Shown piece after piece: positions 16,115-62,712 of a stretch of 64,000 bases of DNA. This DNA comes from Thermoproteota archaeon (GTDB taxonomy: Archaea; Thermoproteota; Methanomethylicia; Culexarchaeales; Culexarchaeaceae), in contig JAJHRD010000002.1 of assembly GCA_020833005.1 (NCBI GenBank), positions 70,287 through 134,286 of the forward strand, given 5' to 3'. Position 1 is the stretch's first letter, and each line of letters starts with the position of its first letter. The translations under genes and the position numbers were made by a program. The notes under the pieces are model-generated. The model saw only the letters and a program-made list of their open reading frames with translations. It had not been told where the DNA came from and made no database searches.

Positions 16115-16212
16115 GCGGGGGTTGCCGAGCCAGGTCAAAGGCGCGAGGCTCAGAAGTTAACTGGGAAACCTCGTGGCGTAGGCCTTCGTGGGTTCAAATC
16201 CCACCCCCCGCA
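16115..16212 (+). tRNA. tRNA-Leu (anticodon CAG) with a 13-nt intron in the anticodon loop
   Basis: Acceptor stem GCGGGGG/CCCCCGC, long variable arm, T arm GTGGG-TTCAAAT-CCCAC, discriminator A. Anticodon stem CGAGG/CCTCG is interrupted by GTTAACTGGGAAA. Confidence 0.8.
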
Positions 16213-16700: not shown

Positions 16701-17672
16701 TTAGGGAGATACGACTCCAGGAATTTTTGGGAATGGCACGGCATCCCACACATATTTCAACCCACAAATGTATCTTGTTAGCCTCTCCACACCTATCCCA
16801 AAGCCAGCTGATGGTGGAATACCATCTTTTAGCATTTCAAGATACCAATTGTAATTTGAAGGATCTTCACCGCTCCTCTTCATCCTCTCAACAACGAACT
16901 CATACCTATACTCCCTTTCACCACCAGATATGGCTTCACCATAACCCTCTGGATACATTAAATCAAAATCCCTTAAAAATCCAGGCCTACTCTCATCCTC
17001 CAAGTAATAAAAGCCACGAGCACTGATGGGATAGTTTGTTATCCAGAAAGGCTCTTTATGGAGAAAGGATAATACTTCTTCAGCATCCCATGGTATTTCG
17101 TAACCGTAACTCACATGATACCCCATGGATGACAGAAGCTTCACAGCTTCATCATAAGTGTAACGTTTGAATGGAATTTTCAATGGAGCCAATTCCCTAC
17201 CAAGAGATTTAAGTTCATTGGAACAGTTTATTAAAACATCATCAATAACCCTCTTTAAAAGCCTTTCTGCAAGATCAAACATATCCTCACATTTGGCATA
17301 TGCAACTTCTAAATCAATTTGCCTAAACTCAACTAAATGCCTCCCAGTACTTACGGCTTCCAAAGGCTCTATCCTAATATTTGGAGATAAAGCAAATATT
17401 TTTGGATAGCATTTAATCATCATCTGCTTATATAAGATCATGCTACTCATAACCTTAAATTTCGACCCATAATAATCTATTGAAGCTTGCTTAGCTCCAC
17501 GTATACCAGGATCTGTGCATGGCCCTATTATTGGTGCTAGAATCTCTATAAACCCCTCACTTCTAAGGAAACTTCTAATTGAAGACAATATGCAATCTTG
17601 AATCTTAAAGATGCATTTAAACTTAAGCTCCCCAATCGTTAAATGCCTAAAGATTACAGAGTTAAATGACAT
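16701..17672 (-). CDS. asnA: Archaeal-type asparagine synthetase A. This is an AsnRS/AspRS-like class II catalytic core with no anticodon-binding domain.
   Basis: 323 aa from the ATG at 17672. Class II motifs FRQIDLE and GFGIGVERL are present. There is no N-terminal OB/anticodon domain. Confidence 0.65.
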   Translation of the reverse strand: MSFNSVIFRHLTIGELKFKCIFKIQDCILSSIRSFLRSEGFIEILAPIIGPCTDPGIRGAKQASIDYYGSKFKVMSSMILYKQMMIKCYPKIFALSPNIRIEPLEAVSTGRHLVEFRQIDLEVAYAKCEDMFDLAERLLKRVIDDVLINCSNELKSLGRELAPLKIPFKRYTYDEAVKLLSSMGYHVSYGYEIPWDAEEVLSFLHKEPFWITNYPISARGFYYLEDESRPGFLRDFDLMYPEGYGEAISGGEREYRYEFVVERMKRSGEDPSNYNWYLEMLKDGIPPSAGFGIGVERLTRYICGLKYVWDAVPFPKIPGVVSP

Positions 17673-17898
17673 AATTAAATCTGGAGAATATGAGAGTCTA
17701 AATATAATATAAATCTTTACTGAAAAATTATGAATAAATGTAAAAAATACATGTATAGTATGGAAAGATATATGAAGAATATGATTTGAAAACATCAACA
17801 TATGAAAAACAATTACATATTGAATTAAATGTGAAACTCCAATAGAAATATAGGTAACGAATGGCTAGGATAATTGGGTTTAATTGAGGAGATAAAGC
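17673..17898. promoter_or_regulatory. AT-rich intergenic region immediately upstream of cdc6-1. Candidate replication origin (oriC1-like) with an ORB-like element TCCAATAGAAAT at 17837-17848.
   Basis: 226 bp that are strongly AT-rich. The position matches the known Sulfolobus oriC1 next to cdc6-1. One TCCA-N3-GAAA motif resembles the ORB core TCCAGTGGAAAC. Confidence 0.35.
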
Positions 17899-19098
17899 TT
17901 GTCTAAGAAGATTGATGACATTTTCACAAGCATAATCCATTCACGAATATTCAAAAATAGAGAACTACTTAGACCAGACTATATACCAGATGAACTCCCA
18001 CATAGAGAGAAACAGATAATGGCTATTGCAAAGGTGCTTGCACCATTACTTCAAGATCAAAGACCATCAAACATGTTCCTATACGGATTAACTGGGACAG
18101 GTAAAACTGCCGTGGCAAAATATGTTTTGGAGAGAATTAAAGCTAGAAGGGAAGTTTCGGGGAGAATTCTAACAGCATACGTAAATTGCAGATATGAAGA
18201 CACAGATTACAGAGTACTTGCAACATTAAATGAGGCGATAGGGGTACATGTACCATTCACAGGATTAGCTACAGCGGAAGTATACAAGCGATTCTTGAAT
18301 GGATTAGATAAGAGGAAAGTATCTATGGTGGTTGTGTTAGATGAGATAGATGGACTAGTTAAGAAATGCGGAGATGAACTACTATACAAACTTACAAGGA
18401 TAAACACTGAACTCAAAAATAGCAAACTATGCGTAATAGGGATAACAAATGATCTGAAATTCACAGAGTTCCTAAGCGCCAGAGTTCTAAGCAGCCTTGG
18501 GGAGGAAGAAGTGGTTTTCCCACCATACACTGCACCAGAACTTGAAGACATACTTTTAAGAAGAGTGGAAAAGGCATTTAGAAGTGGAGTCTTGGAAGAT
18601 GGAGTAATACAGTTATGCGCGGCATTAGCTGCAAAAGAGCATGGAGACGCCAGGAGGGCATTGGAACTTTTGAGGATAGCTGGCGAAATAGCTGAGAGGA
18701 ATGGTCAAGACAAGGTAACCATAGAAAATGTGAAACAAGCATATAAGGAGATAGAGAAGGATAGAGTAATAGAAGCCATAACAAGCCTACCACTACACTC
18801 AAAAATCCTCCTACTATCAATATACACGTTGCAATTGGAGATGGGTAAGAGGGAAGCAACCACTGGGGAAATATATGATACATACAAAACATTCTGCGAG
18901 AAAATCAAGATAGACCCACTAACACAGAGGAGGATTGGAGACCTAATAAACGAGCTTGATACGCTAGGAATAATAAATGTGAAGTTAGTGAGTAGGGGGA
19001 GGTATGGAAGGACAAAGATAATAAAGATTGGTGTAAATGAGAAAAGCCTTAGAGAAGGATTATTAAGCGATGAAAAGATATCAAATTTGCTAAAGTAG
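17899..19098 (+). CDS. cdc6-1: Orc1/Cdc6 replication initiator (Cdc6-1 type)
   Basis: 399 aa. LLPDYIPDELPHRE, Walker A YGLTGTGKTAV, VLDEID, and CAALAAKEHGDARRALELLRIAGEIAER in the winged-helix region. TTG start. Confidence 0.95.
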   Translation: MSKKIDDIFTSIIHSRIFKNRELLRPDYIPDELPHREKQIMAIAKVLAPLLQDQRPSNMFLYGLTGTGKTAVAKYVLERIKARREVSGRILTAYVNCRYEDTDYRVLATLNEAIGVHVPFTGLATAEVYKRFLNGLDKRKVSMVVVLDEIDGLVKKCGDELLYKLTRINTELKNSKLCVIGITNDLKFTEFLSARVLSSLGEEEVVFPPYTAPELEDILLRRVEKAFRSGVLEDGVIQLCAALAAKEHGDARRALELLRIAGEIAERNGQDKVTIENVKQAYKEIEKDRVIEAITSLPLHSKILLLSIYTLQLEMGKREATTGEIYDTYKTFCEKIKIDPLTQRRIGDLINELDTLGIINVKLVSRGRYGRTKIIKIGVNEKSLREGLLSDEKISNLLK

Positions 19099-19680
19099 AT
19101 GGAAATGAAGATACTAACATTTGAAGATGGGAAATTTGTTGGAAAGGGGTTTGGGAAAACATTATTGATAGGTTTAAAGACAGAAGACACATTAATTGAA
19201 GACATCTACTTTAGGGAAATTGAAATTGATGGACTTGATGCAACTGAAAAAGCCATTGAAATAATAAATGAAGCAAAACCAATAGACATAATACTTCTAA
19301 ATGGAATATCCTACGCCGGATTCAACTTAATAGATGCTGAGAAAATATGGATTAACCTAAGAATACCATTAATAATATACACTAAGAAAAAGCCAGATAA
19401 TAAGAAGGTTATATCAGCATTAATAAAACATTTCCCAGATTGGCGTATAAGATGGGATATAATAAAAAACACTCTAAAAGCATCGAGAGGGATACATCAA
19501 GTAAAGATAAAAAGCCGTGAAAAACCAGTCTACATTGAAGTCATAGGGATAGACTTAGAGGAAGCAATAAAGATATTGAAGAATAACACCATATGGGGGA
19601 GAACACCGGAACCAATAAGAATAATAGAAATCATAGCTGAAGAATCATCAAAAATATACTTGCAAGTTAAAAATAAATAG
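19099..19680 (+). CDS. Conserved archaeal protein, possibly of the DUF99/UPF0215 (EndoV-like) family
   Basis: 193 aa. Its ATG directly abuts the cdc6 stop. Family assignment is tentative. Confidence 0.35.
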   Translation: MEMKILTFEDGKFVGKGFGKTLLIGLKTEDTLIEDIYFREIEIDGLDATEKAIEIINEAKPIDIILLNGISYAGFNLIDAEKIWINLRIPLIIYTKKKPDNKKVISALIKHFPDWRIRWDIIKNTLKASRGIHQVKIKSREKPVYIEVIGIDLEEAIKILKNNTIWGRTPEPIRIIEIIAEESSKIYLQVKNK

Positions 19681-19780: not shown

Positions 19781-19800
19781 CCATCCTCTTAAATTAAACT

Positions 19801-19823
19801 GTTTAGGTAAATTTTACCTAAAC
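19801..19823. repeat. Perfect 11-bp inverted repeat with a 1-nt spacer, GTTTAGGTAAA-T-TTTACCTAAAC, 20 nt downstream of tRNA-Thr
   Basis: Read directly from the sequence. The right arm is the exact reverse complement of the left arm. Confidence 0.85.
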
Positions 19824-19965
19824 TTGAAAGGCTATAAGTGGTTCTTCTTAAAATAATGTTGTCCGGGTATGGCTAATGGGAATGAAATTCAAAATAAACT
19901 TTCCTATTAACATTTCATAATCCCTCATTAGAATGACCTAAAAATGTTGAAGTGGATATTAGAAC

Positions 19966-49263: not shown

Positions 49264-49363
49264 CGCCGGGGGCGGGATTCGAACCCGCGCGGCCTCAAAG
49301 GCCATCGGCTTTTCGCGGAAGACTTAGCAAGCCGACGCCCTAACCAGACTAGGCGACCCCGGC
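49264..49363 (-). tRNA. tRNA-Ser (anticodon GCT) with a 14-nt intron
   Basis: Reverse complement: GCCGGGG acceptor, D stem GCCT/GGGC, anticodon stem TCGGC/GCCGA with loop TTGCTAA interrupted by GTCTTCCGCGAAAA, long GGCC-TTTGA-GGCC variable arm, T arm GCGGG-TTCGAAT-CCCGC, discriminator G. Confidence 0.85.
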
Positions 49364-61104: not shown

Positions 61105-62712
61105 TTAGACCCCCCACAATGTTGGAATCCTCTTTGATCTTAGCCAATCTAAGTCATTGGAGAAAAGTAGTCGTATATCTTCTATCCCGAGAGCCACCAT
61201 AGCCAATCTATCTATCCCAAGTCCCCAAGCAAGAACTGTAGCTTTAATTCCAAGTGGGTACGTGACTTCAGGTCTGAAAATCCCTGCAGGTAATGCTTCA
61301 ATCCAACCCAATTTATCATGTTTAATGTACCCAACAACACTGGGTTCCGTGAATGGGAAATATGCTGGCTGAAATTTAACCTCCTTTATGCCAAAGGCTT
61401 CCGCAATAGTTTTTAAGAAGCCCAGCAAATGTTTAAAATTAACATCATATGATACAACTATACCCTCACACTGATTAAATTCCATTAAATGAGTTGCATC
61501 GATTTTATCAGGCCTATAATTTCTGTCAATCGTAAATATCTTCTTCGGCAAATCAGAGTCACTTAACTGAGATAAACAACGCACAGATACTGCTGTAGTC
61601 TGACTCCTCAATATACGTTTTAAAGCGAGTTCAGGATCCCAGTAACCCCAGCCTTTCGAACCAGTTTCCCAGCCGTTTTCATGAGTAGCTTTAACACGCT
61701 CCCATATTTCCCTCTCGCAGACTTTATCTAAATTCATCCGTTTATAATCAACATAGAAGACATCATGTATATCTCTTGCAGGATGATCTGAGGGCATGAA
61801 GAGGGCATCTGTATTCCAGAAGTTGACTTCTATTGGTGGACTAGTAACCTCTTCAAATCCCAATCCTATAAGTATTTCTCGAATTTCATCTATTATCTCC
61901 CTATATGGATGCTTCTTCCCAAAAATAAGTTTCTTTACAGGAGCGGAGACATCATAAGGTCTAAAGTAAAGATTAGACCACTCCCCAGAAACTATAATGT
62001 CCCTTGTAAGTTCATTAACTATTTTTATGTTTTTAATGTCCAATACATTACGAATTGAGAAAAGCTCCTTAATCATACTCAAAGCTTTTAAGCCAACTTG
62101 AGTTAATGAGGCTTTAACTTCCTTTACACTTCTATCCTTAATAATCCTCCCTCTCTTCCTCAGAGATCCCAGCAAAACAAGGTCTTCCTCAGAAAGTGGA
62201 AAGCCATTATTAATTTTACTTAATAGTATGTATGGAGGATAATTGTTTAGTAGGTCGGTAGCATTTTCAACCTTCAATTTTACAAGTCTATTTCCATTCA
62301 CTTTTTCAATAGAAATCCAACCCAATTTCACAGCCCAACTTAATCCTATCTTTAATTCAGCTTCACTCAATTGAAGATCTTCAATTAAAGATGCACCACC
62401 ATGCTCAATCAATTTCTTGATAACCCGTTGCTCTGGAAATAGTTGCTCTAAGTATTCCTCTCCTTCCACATCCAATTCATATGTGGATATAAGAACTTCT
62501 TCTACTGATATTAGATTCTTGACCTTTAGAGATTCAAAAGCCCATAACACAGAGTCCACTGATAACCCAGTTTTCTCAGAAACATCTTTTAATGTATGGG
62601 AAGTCTCTAAGGCAATCAAAACCTTCATTTCAATTGGATGAAGCATCCCTATGATTTTTTGAAGAAGATCTATTGAAATTGGAGCTCCATTACTCCCTCC
62701 CATATTACACAT
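61105..62712 (-). CDS. pheS: Phenylalanyl-tRNA synthetase, alpha subunit
   Basis: 535 aa. Class II motifs FRPE..........GLGIDRLAMV at the C-terminus, and N-terminal winged-helix repeats. Stop abuts the pheT start. Confidence 0.9.
   Translation of the reverse strand: MCNMGGSNGAPISIDLLQKIIGMLHPIEMKVLIALETSHTLKDVSEKTGLSVDSVLWAFESLKVKNLISVEEVLISTYELDVEGEEYLEQLFPEQRVIKKLIEHGGASLIEDLQLSEAELKIGLSWAVKLGWISIEKVNGNRLVKLKVENATDLLNNYPPYILLSKINNGFPLSEEDLVLLGSLRKRGRIIKDRSVKEVKASLTQVGLKALSMIKELFSIRNVLDIKNIKIVNELTRDIIVSGEWSNLYFRPYDVSAPVKKLIFGKKHPYREIIDEIREILIGLGFEEVTSPPIEVNFWNTDALFMPSDHPARDIHDVFYVDYKRMNLDKVCEREIWERVKATHENGWETGSKGWGYWDPELALKRILRSQTTAVSVRCLSQLSDSDLPKKIFTIDRNYRPDKIDATHLMEFNQCEGIVVSYDVNFKHLLGFLKTIAEAFGIKEVKFQPAYFPFTEPSVVGYIKHDKLGWIEALPAGIFRPEVTYPLGIKATVLAWGLGIDRLAMVALGIEDIRLLFSNDLDWLRSKRIPTLWGV

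Follow-up and report, generated by a model that had tools for sequence, protein, structure and literature searches.

A probable ORB element within the predicted orc1 promoter of Candidatus Culexarchaeum and its possible role as an Orc1 operator

Does the short intergenic region upstream of orc1 in this archaeon serve as an origin of chromosome replication? An origin adjoins the Orc1-1-type gene in nearly all archaea with mapped origins (PMC4010727, PMC12141716), and the prior for an origin at this place is therefore high. In the literature, no replication origin or Orc1 binding site is described for Culexarchaeia or their Methanomethylicia relatives. We analyzed the locus within a stretch of DNA of 64,000 nucleotides, referred to below as the window, and compared it with orc1 loci of other archaea. 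The region had been named a candidate replication origin in an original prediction made from the letters of the window. We tentatively favor another reading, in which the region is a conserved control region holding an operator for Orc1.

The asnA-orc1 spacer and the encoded initiator

The gap between the divergent genes asnA and orc1 spans exactly positions 17673-17898, bordered by the ATG of asnA (17672-17670, minus strand) and the TTG of orc1 at 17899. It had been described as a 226-bp, strongly AT-rich intergenic region; these coordinates were exact, and the gap has 24% GC (0.239, compared with 0.377 for the window). When all 64 kb were scanned, the lowest-GC stretch of 200 nt was 17653-17852 (0.205), and 17701-17820 tied for the lowest-GC stretch of 120 nt (0.175). 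Several other promoter gaps were similarly poor in GC, with values of 0.196-0.22 for those at ~8.1, 30.0, and 62.7 kb. The features of the locus are summarized in Table 1.

Table 1 Features of the asnA-orc1 locus (positions in the window).
Feature	Position	Strand	Remarks
asnA (asparagine synthetase A)	16701-17672	minus	323 aa, NCBIfam equivalog
Intergenic spacer	17673-17898	none	226 bp, 23.9% GC, length kept in relatives
Inverted CTCCAG half-site	17681-17686	minus	Present, not conserved, not an ORB
Conserved block A	17706-17753	none	Variable at 1 of 48 positions (0.02) in a comparison of three Culexarchaeum genomes
Predicted asnA TATA box, TTTATAT	17707-17713	minus	35-41 nt before the ATG, in the conserved ATATAAAyyTTT block
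AT-rich tract between the two predicted TATA boxes	17714-17836	CTCC end of the ORB faces the tract	Sole candidate unwinding element, by composition
Second clade-conserved motif, TGTAAAAAAT	17739-17748	plus	Part of the palindrome ATGTA-AAAAA-TACAT at 17738-17752
Conserved block B, including the ORB	17802-17858	none	Variable at 1 of 57 positions (0.018) in a comparison of three Culexarchaeum genomes
Single full-length ORB (probable), CTCCAATAGAAATATAGGTAA	17837-17857	plus	Ungapped match to the 21-nt ORB
ORB parts	GG at 17853-17854	plus	Dyad CTCCAATAGAAAT, spacer ATA, G-string shortened to GG
Predicted orc1 TATA box, AAATATA, inside the ORB	17846-17852	plus	-53 to -47 from the TTG; predicted from position only
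Shine-Dalgarno-like GAGGAG	17886-17891	plus	-13 to -8, 7 nt before the TTG
orc1 (Orc1-1/Cdc6-1 ortholog)	17899-19098	plus	399 aa, TTG start conserved in six genomes
Endonuclease dU family gene	19099-19680	plus	Abuts the orc1 stop codon

The asnA product scored 443 bits against the NCBIfam equivalog 'asparagine synthetase A' (cutoff 368) and matched Pfam tRNA-synt_2 (1.8e-58). A mechanical open reading frame of 366 aa would place the start of asnA at 17801; this start was rejected because orthologs begin at the site homologous to 17672 (ATG or GTG). We find it hardly credible that the spacer codes for a product, whether as an N-terminal extension of AsnA (reading frame to 17801) or as a 5' leader or non-coding RNA with structure. 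In the window and in two other Culexarchaeum genomes (L081 and L001), the minus-strand frame upstream of the asnA ATG stays open over 43 codons, but by our own estimate an open frame of such length is not rare in a T-rich strand (~0.05 per frame), third codon positions are not overrepresented among the variable sites (9 of 24 by hand count), and orthologs from loci at ~80% Orc1 identity start at the homologous ATG or GTG and have no extension. Rfam and tRNA scans of the gap found nothing, and RNA folding energies of the gap were no better than those of shuffled sequences (z = 0.21 and 0.54).

The orc1 product scored 515 bits against the NCBIfam equivalog 'ORC1-type DNA replication protein' (cutoff 501) and contained the Pfam domains Cdc6_C (8e-32) and Cdc6_lid (6e-27). 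Its best relatives of solved structure were S. solfataricus Cdc6-1 (2qby_A, 8e-129) and A. pernix ORC1 (2v1u_A, 1e-120); Orc1-3 (6e-55) and Cdc6-2-type proteins (1e-25 to 1e-29) were weaker relatives. By sequence comparison, the encoded protein is thus an Orc1-1 ortholog, as assumed when the gene was called Cdc6-1. The wing (RGRYGRT) and the recognition helix are conserved, and the Orc1 proteins of this clade carry RV[L/I]SS where 107 of 121 other loci carry RV[K/R]SS. Orc1 paralogs were not found within the 64-kb window. The pairing of orc1 with the endonuclease dU gene is conserved across Culexarchaeia, Methanomethylicia-type, and Nezhaarchaeota loci.

The Orc1 protein is 100% identical to that of the metagenome-assembled genome (MAG) 'archaeon YNP-LCB-003-016', 93-96% identical to those of the Ca. 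Culexarchaeum genomes (L001, L081), and ~80% identical to those of MAGs labelled Methanomethylicia (L002, L003, L082, L161). Identity to Thermofilaceae, Desulfurococcales, Methanosarcinales, and others was 50-60%. The host is a member of Ca. Culexarchaeum, an uncultured hot-spring lineage, and not Sulfolobus.

A probable ORB in the predicted orc1 promoter

The sequences of ORB2 and ORB3 of S. islandicus were taken from the oligonucleotide table of PMC12141716, and all exact CTCCANTNGAA matches were collected from 160 orc1 loci of other archaea. Between -600 and +199 of the orc1 start, 79 of the 104 exact matches were found. Copies on the plus strand predominated at -400 to -1 (50 matches), and those on the minus strand lay further upstream or abutted the orc1 start codon. 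From 63 distinct ORBs that precede orc1 in archaea other than Culexarchaeum, we built a 21-nt matrix, and the resulting pan-archaeal consensus was CTCCAGTGGAAATAAAGGGGT.

The sequence CTCCAATAGAAATATAGGTAA aligned with this consensus without gaps; its dyad and A-rich spacer are retained, as are the first two Gs of its G-string. This sequence was the top matrix match of the window (16.5 bits; runner-up, 12.8 bits; ~128,000 positions) and coincided with the only exact CTCCANTNGAA match in the 64 kb, at 17837-17857. The 13-nt ORB core at this site scored 18.1 bits, and the next best core in the window scored 12.7 bits. Core scores of at least 18 bits occurred 11 times in 753,645 bp outside orc1-upstream zones, corresponding to ~0.003 expected per 226 bp. 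Its orientation is that of most orc1-proximal ORBs in other archaea. We therefore regard the element at 17837-17857 as very probably a genuine ORB homolog.

The original prediction had placed an ORB-like element, GTGAAACTCCAATAGAAAT, at 17831-17849, which was correct in position and letters, and had likened it to the Sulfolobus ORB core. That likeness is at chance level for the 11-mer TCCAGTGGAAA alone, for which 28 matches with at most two mismatches were found in the window compared with 20.5 expected; it is the longer element, extending to 17857, that is significant. The second-best matrix match of the window (62619-62639) was discarded because it lies inside the PheRS alpha gene, and other ORB-like sites (10.5, 45.7, 46.1, and 60.6-63.5 kb) lie within open reading frames or protein-like reading frames.

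The element departs from the canonical form in its G-string. Only GG (AGGTAA) is present at ORB positions 17-18, where the canonical GGGG[T], the part touched by the AAA+ domain, spans positions 17-21. The window, L081, and L001, which represent Culexarchaeum, have identical ORBs, and the core ATAGAAATATAGGT is invariant in L082, L161, L002, and L003, all of which share the asnA-orc1 arrangement. In these asnA-linked relatives, ATAGAAATATAGGT retains the GG where the G-string canonically lies and stands 43-47 nt before the conserved TTG start, and the AGGT following the TATA is invariant in all of them. Outside the three Culexarchaeum genomes CTCC is altered, being replaced by TCCC in L082, TTTC in L003 and L161, and GATC in L002.

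The AAATATA of the ORB coincides with the predicted position of the orc1 BRE/TATA. The GAGGAG before the TTG implies a leadered orc1 mRNA, and a GAGG/GGGAG-type element is present in all orthologous gaps. In four leadered genes, the distance from the TATA-like box to the start codon was 39-47 nt by eye, and that of orc1 was 46 nt. Proximal ORBs stand at fixed distances from orc1 in other clades too, either at -80 to -117 or abutting the start codon. In relatives with 66-69% identity, the gap to the neighboring gene hjc is only ~50-107 nt long. It contains TTATATA between two convergent ORB-like elements and is too short to accommodate an unwinding element as well. Together with the position of the ORB on the promoter, this pattern fits an operator on the promoter of the initiator's own gene.

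In another reading, the spacer holds no more than two back-to-back archaeal promoters and the ORB likeness is accidental, the element being a BRE/TATA, ATAGAAATATAGG, that happens to follow CTCC and is not bound by Orc1. The deepest-conserved part, ATAGAAATATAGGT, does resemble the BRE/TATA block of asnA on the other strand, TAAAGATTTATAT, the CTCC is confined in intact form to the three Culexarchaeum genomes, and low GC content is common to several promoter gaps of the window. We nevertheless consider this reading improbable. It would have to account for an ungapped 21-nt match to the pan-archaeal ORB, including the GG, that ranks first among ~128,000 positions; for a core match of a strength expected only ~0.003 times per 226 bp; and for the invariance of AGGT after the TATA in all asnA-linked relatives. 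In addition, a Thermofilaceae locus carries the same box with the short G-string in inverted orientation (CTCCAGTAGAAGTAGAGGTTAA) adjoining orc1, where it cannot be the same TATA box; this speaks for a box with more than a TATA function.

The conservation of the spacer extends beyond the ORB. Its length in the window and its relatives is 226, 226, 225, 226, 224, 224, and 211 bp. Among the three Culexarchaeum genomes, the fraction of variable positions was highest in 17673-17705 (0.39; 13 of 33) and was 0.21 in 17754-17801 and 0.15 in 17859-17898; the two blocks in Table 1 were nearly invariant. For comparison, the variable fraction was 0.27-0.34 at third codon positions, 0.13-0.72 in other gaps, and 0-0.04 in tRNAs. 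The constrained DNA sits between the two predicted TATA boxes and not between each TATA box and its gene, and these ~150 bp are conserved far beyond the needs of two core promoters.

Block A contains a second clade-conserved motif, TGTAAAAAAT. Its summed distance over five other lineages was 2, compared with null minima of at least 4 in 40 Markov surrogates, and it also occurs upstream of orc1 in L166, where the neighbor is a gene other than asnA. This motif might be bound by a regulator or might act as an accessory element of an origin. A repeat search inside the gap returned only short chance-level pairs; the apparent direct repeat TGAAT(T)AAATGT(A/G)AAA was rejected because the best self-alignment was not significant (p = 0.12).

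Origin hallmarks and strand asymmetry

We then weighed these observations against an active bidirectional origin of the oriC1 type, in which Orc1 bound at the ORB and at undetected weak sites would load MCM on 17714-17836. Several features suit such an origin. The adjacent gene encodes an Orc1-1 ortholog, the probable ORB has the canonical orientation with its CTCC end toward the AT-rich tract, and the gap holds the lowest-GC 200 nt of the window. The AT-rich tract adjoins the dyad end of the ORB, with 17.5% GC in 17701-17820, an observation of composition only. The non-coding DNA between the promoters and the length of the spacer are strongly conserved, the second motif TGTAAAAAAT could parallel the Sulfolobus ucm in role (PMC12141716), and the homologous proximal ORB of euryarchaeal relatives is part of multi-ORB clusters with inverted partners.

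The expected partner of the ORB was not found. With the 13-nt core matrix, no other site in 17500-18000 scored above 2 bits. The intragenic minus-strand matches at 17176-17188 and 18828-18840 (core ranks 4th and 2nd), which lie beyond this interval, were rejected because they are not conserved in L081 or L001, that is, not even within the genus. A degenerate inverted ORB on the asnA TATA, TTTCAGTAAAGATTTATAT, agreed by eye at 11 of 19 ORB positions, and it was also rejected since only its BRE/TATA part, and not its dyad, is conserved in relatives. An inverted half-site had been proposed at 17681-17686. CTGGAG (reverse complement, CTCCAG) is indeed present there, but the corresponding letters are CTGAAA in L081 and CTAAAG in L001, and the half-site sits in the most variable part of the gap; it is not an ORB. 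The picture of inverted ORBs flanking an unwinding region therefore does not hold for this locus, which has one ORB only.

This absence weighs against an active origin, as both inverted ORBs are required in the two genetically dissected systems: loss of either abolishes activity in oriC1 of S. islandicus (PMC12141716) and in oriC1 of H. hispanica (PMC3936714). The G-strings are essential in H. hispanica oriC1 (PMC3936714), and that of the present element is cut to GG. The Sulfolobales ucm motif, ATTATACAAAAG, had no match with three or fewer mismatches inside 17673-17898.

Unexpectedly, the two strands proved to be very strongly asymmetric in composition. At 4-fold degenerate sites, the component of AT skew that is independent of gene orientation was +0.41 to the left and +0.35 to the right of the gap, and the codon component was only ~0.10. 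At third codon positions, A exceeded T in all 42 plus-strand genes except one at -0.02, and T exceeded A in all 23 minus-strand genes, on both sides of the gap. The same polarity continued 10 kb past the left end of the window (~0.37) and ~9 kb past its right end (~0.18). Thus, the AT skew showed no sign change from -10 kb to +73 kb in window coordinates, that is, in 83 kb around the gap.

The cumulative curves agreed with this result. The amino/keto curve rose monotonically across the window, and none of the cumulative disparity curves had an extremum at 17.8 kb. Cumulative skews of GC, AT, and purines largely followed gene orientation along the window and had no feature at 17.8 kb. Regression of third-position GC skew gave no side-of-gap effect (-0.017 +/- 0.026). 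A small step in asymmetry was detected at the gap (side coefficient, -0.040 +/- 0.015). It would suit a weak origin if the plus strand is the lagging strand and would otherwise have no such meaning; the weak G-C component did not settle which of the strands is leading. Sign changes of amino/keto asymmetry on short flanks, found at 10 of 32 multi-ORB loci and 5 of 54 others, were too noisy to serve as a control.

We know of no established cause of such strand asymmetry other than the direction of replication. Strand asymmetry is the basis of origin prediction by Z-curve and Ori-Finder 2 and has been used in archaea (PMC4588119). Since no flip position was seen in these 83 kb, the link of the asymmetry to replication in this host is one that we infer. 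If a dominant bidirectional origin lay at 17.8 kb, the asymmetry should change sign there, and no flip was found. With no inverted ORB pair, an ORB that overlaps the predicted promoter, and no asymmetry flip, the candidate origin of the original prediction is possible but is not the most likely reading of the locus, and we consider an active bidirectional origin rather unlikely.

A single, polar ORB might also be imagined as a minimal origin that loads one MCM hexamer and replicates the chromosome in one direction. Such an origin would explain why the very strong asymmetry keeps its sign across the orc1 gap, and the embedding of the orc1 TATA in the ORB would make initiator synthesis and licensing mutually exclusive. 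If this were true, the asymmetry would never flip around the whole genome. The asymmetry, however, declines rightward from 0.37 to 0.18, and we hold a unidirectional origin to be very improbable.

Proposed role and comparison with known systems

Our preferred reading, held tentatively, is that the box is an Orc1 operator: an orc1-proximal ORB of the oriC1 type that lies within the orc1 promoter, in a conserved control region, and has weak or no origin activity. The spacer would be a conserved divergent control region for asnA and orc1 with one Orc1-1 recognition box. This box would be the homolog of the orc1-proximal ORB of oriC1-type origins, standing alone, and its AAATATA spacer would double as the orc1 TATA box. 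The Orc1 protein encoded at 17899-19098 may bind the box as a monomer, with its winged helix touching CTCCAATAGAAAT and the initiator-specific motif of its AAA+ domain touching the shortened G-string AGG. We propose that this binding would occlude TBP and TFB, so that the initiator would repress its own transcription. The locus would then be at most a weak or vestigial origin, and the main origin of the chromosome would lie elsewhere. Orc1 binding, repression, and the lack of strong origin activity are what we infer from the features described above.

Elements of this kind are well known, and what is new is the lineage. For the encoded Orc1, the locus offers a candidate site defined precisely to 21 bp. 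The locus also calls for caution: here the box stands on the predicted promoter of orc1 itself, without a partner and without a turn in strand composition, and thus an ORB beside orc1 is insufficient to call an origin. If the strand asymmetry is linked to replication, it is strong enough for whole-genome curves, drawn on available contigs (0.24 to 1.08 Mb), to reveal without culture where replication truly starts in this class and whether the initiator gene has become separated from its origin.

The site resembles oriC1 of Sulfolobus and Saccharolobus in lying directly upstream of the Orc1-1 ortholog. ORB2 of S. islandicus (CTCCAAATGAAATACTGGGGT) and the reverse complement of ORB3 (CTCCAATGGAACCGAAGGGGT) have the same dyad as CTCCAATAGAAATATAGGTAA, and in both systems the CTCC end faces an AT-rich tract (oligonucleotide P23, PMC12141716). 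Unlike Sulfolobus oriC1, which has three ORBs, the Culexarchaeum locus has one, without an inverted partner. The G-string is GGGG in Sulfolobus and GG here, the ucm of Sulfolobus has no counterpart within three mismatches, the present ORB overlaps the predicted orc1 TATA box, and there is no switch of strand composition at the Culexarchaeum locus.

The orc1-proximal ORBs of Methanosarcinales and Methanotrichales share strand, orientation, and 21-nt architecture with the present element. They also stand at a fixed short distance from orc1, -80 to -117 compared with -62 here. Unlike the Culexarchaeum locus, these loci have 2-6 strong ORBs, including inverted distal ones ~550 nt upstream; the Culexarchaeum gap has room for one ORB, and one is present. 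A single strong ORB adjoining orc1 is also seen in loci of the Thermofilaceae/Desulfurococcales type, and the locus L005/L088 shares the short G-string form, CTCCAGTAGAAGTAGAGGTTAA. In these loci, unlike here, the ORB is inverted and lies between the promoter and the start codon, not on the TATA box.

The proposed self-repression by Orc1 would be analogous to the DnaA boxes in the dnaA promoter, through which the initiator DnaA regulates its own gene. Both would place initiator sites near the initiator gene in a control role, although the proteins and the organisms are different. An ORB cluster that regulates rather than initiates is known from oriC2D of Haloarcula hispanica, which has no origin activity (PMC3936714). 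The oriC2D cluster consists of 11 ORBs downstream of cdc6E and acts by titration, whereas the Culexarchaeum locus has one box on the core promoter, where the action would be repression.

Orc1 protein segment and the origin recognition box

The Orc1-1/Cdc6-1 ortholog encoded in the window was compared with those at other archaeal orc1 loci (denoted by L-numbers). The segment aligned with ITNDVKFVDLLDPRVKSSL of Sulfolobus solfataricus Orc1-1 (see table) contained RV[K/R]SS at 107 of 121 loci. In the Culexarchaeia-type clade, the same segment reads LSARV[L/I]SS, and the origin recognition box (ORB) of this clade carries only GG, as opposed to GGGG. To judge from these sequences, the protein and its site may have changed together, but the association probably goes back to one evolutionary event.

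Coordinates of features in the window.
Feature	Position	Strand	Remarks
TGTAAAAAAT motif	17739-17748		Upstream of orc1
Orc1 segment, residues ~181-199	~18439-18495		Aligned with ITNDVKFVDLLDPRVKSSL
Endonuclease dU gene	19099-19680		Paired with orc1
Gap after tRNA-Thr	19784-19965		Hypervariable
Second-best full-length ORB matrix match, ATCCAATTGAAATGAAGGTTT	62619-62639	minus	12.8 bits
Weaker ORB matrix match	62672-62684	minus	45 nt from ATCCAATTGAAATGAAGGTTT match
Long tRNA match (Rfam)	16115-16212		98 nt, 44 bits
Long tRNA match (Rfam)	49264-49363		100 nt, 50 bits

Conserved elements upstream of orc1

The motif TGTAAAAAAT was kept upstream of orc1 in the Culexarchaeia and Methanomethylicia-type lineages (L082, L161, L002, L003, and L166), in every case on the orc1 strand. 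It is present in two copies at L082 and L161, and in the window a palindrome, ATGTA-AAAAA-TACAT, is built around it. At L166 (28% GC; source label Verstraetearchaeota), the motif is directly followed by three direct repeats, CCAAAAATTGTTT, CCAAAAATTGTTT, and TCAAAAACTGTTT, located between about −345 and −290 relative to the start of orc1, within the 419-nt upstream gap. On sequence grounds, this layout looks iteron-like.

In Methanosarcinales and Methanotrichales-type loci, including L016, L021, L061, L063, L105, L124, L131, L133, L140, L146, and others, the orc1-proximal ORB lies at a near-constant −80 to −83 relative to the extrapolated start, and a conserved ACCAT follows after 9 nt. Because of this near-constant position and the conserved ACCAT, coupling of the ORB with the promoter is suggested to be widespread.

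Other sites and strand asymmetry in the window

The two further matches to the ORB matrix, derived from ORBs of other archaea, both fall inside the PheRS alpha gene at its 5′ end, adjoining a gap of 22% GC, and probably occurred by chance. The gap after tRNA-Thr differed at 132 of 182 aligned positions among three Culexarchaeum genomes, in contrast to the conserved gap upstream of orc1; the sequence after tRNA-Thr was probably replaced or cannot be aligned. Neither of the long Rfam tRNA matches was called by ARAGORN; they are probably archaeal tRNA genes with introns.

Strand asymmetry was very strong, regardless of gene orientation, throughout the window (1-64000) and its flanks (L171, 10 kb on the left; L174, ~9 kb on the right). 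Plus-strand genes showed A3 >> T3 with a coding skew of ~+0.4, and T3 exceeded A3 in all minus-strand genes. The strand component at 4-fold sites was 0.35-0.41 and dropped to ~0.18 past 64 kb. This magnitude is unusually strong for an archaeon, and the origin and terminus should be mappable from the asymmetry on long contigs.

Gene neighbourhood of orc1 in relatives

At L162-L165, whose Orc1 proteins are 66-69% identical, hjc (Holliday junction resolvase) replaces asnA as the upstream neighbour. The gap upstream of orc1 is just ~50-107 nt there, with a central TTATATA between two convergent ORB-like elements, as exemplified by TTTCAATTGCAGTTAAGGTTATATACCAATGTTTCCAATGCAA at L163. The orc1-endonuclease dU pair, in which the orc1 stop codon abuts or overlaps the endonuclease dU start, is kept from Culexarchaeum to Nezhaarchaeota (window, L161, and L163-L168). 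At L166 and L167, the PolD small-subunit gene is convergent with this pair, an arrangement reminiscent of the oriC-cdc6-dp1 cluster of Thermococcales.
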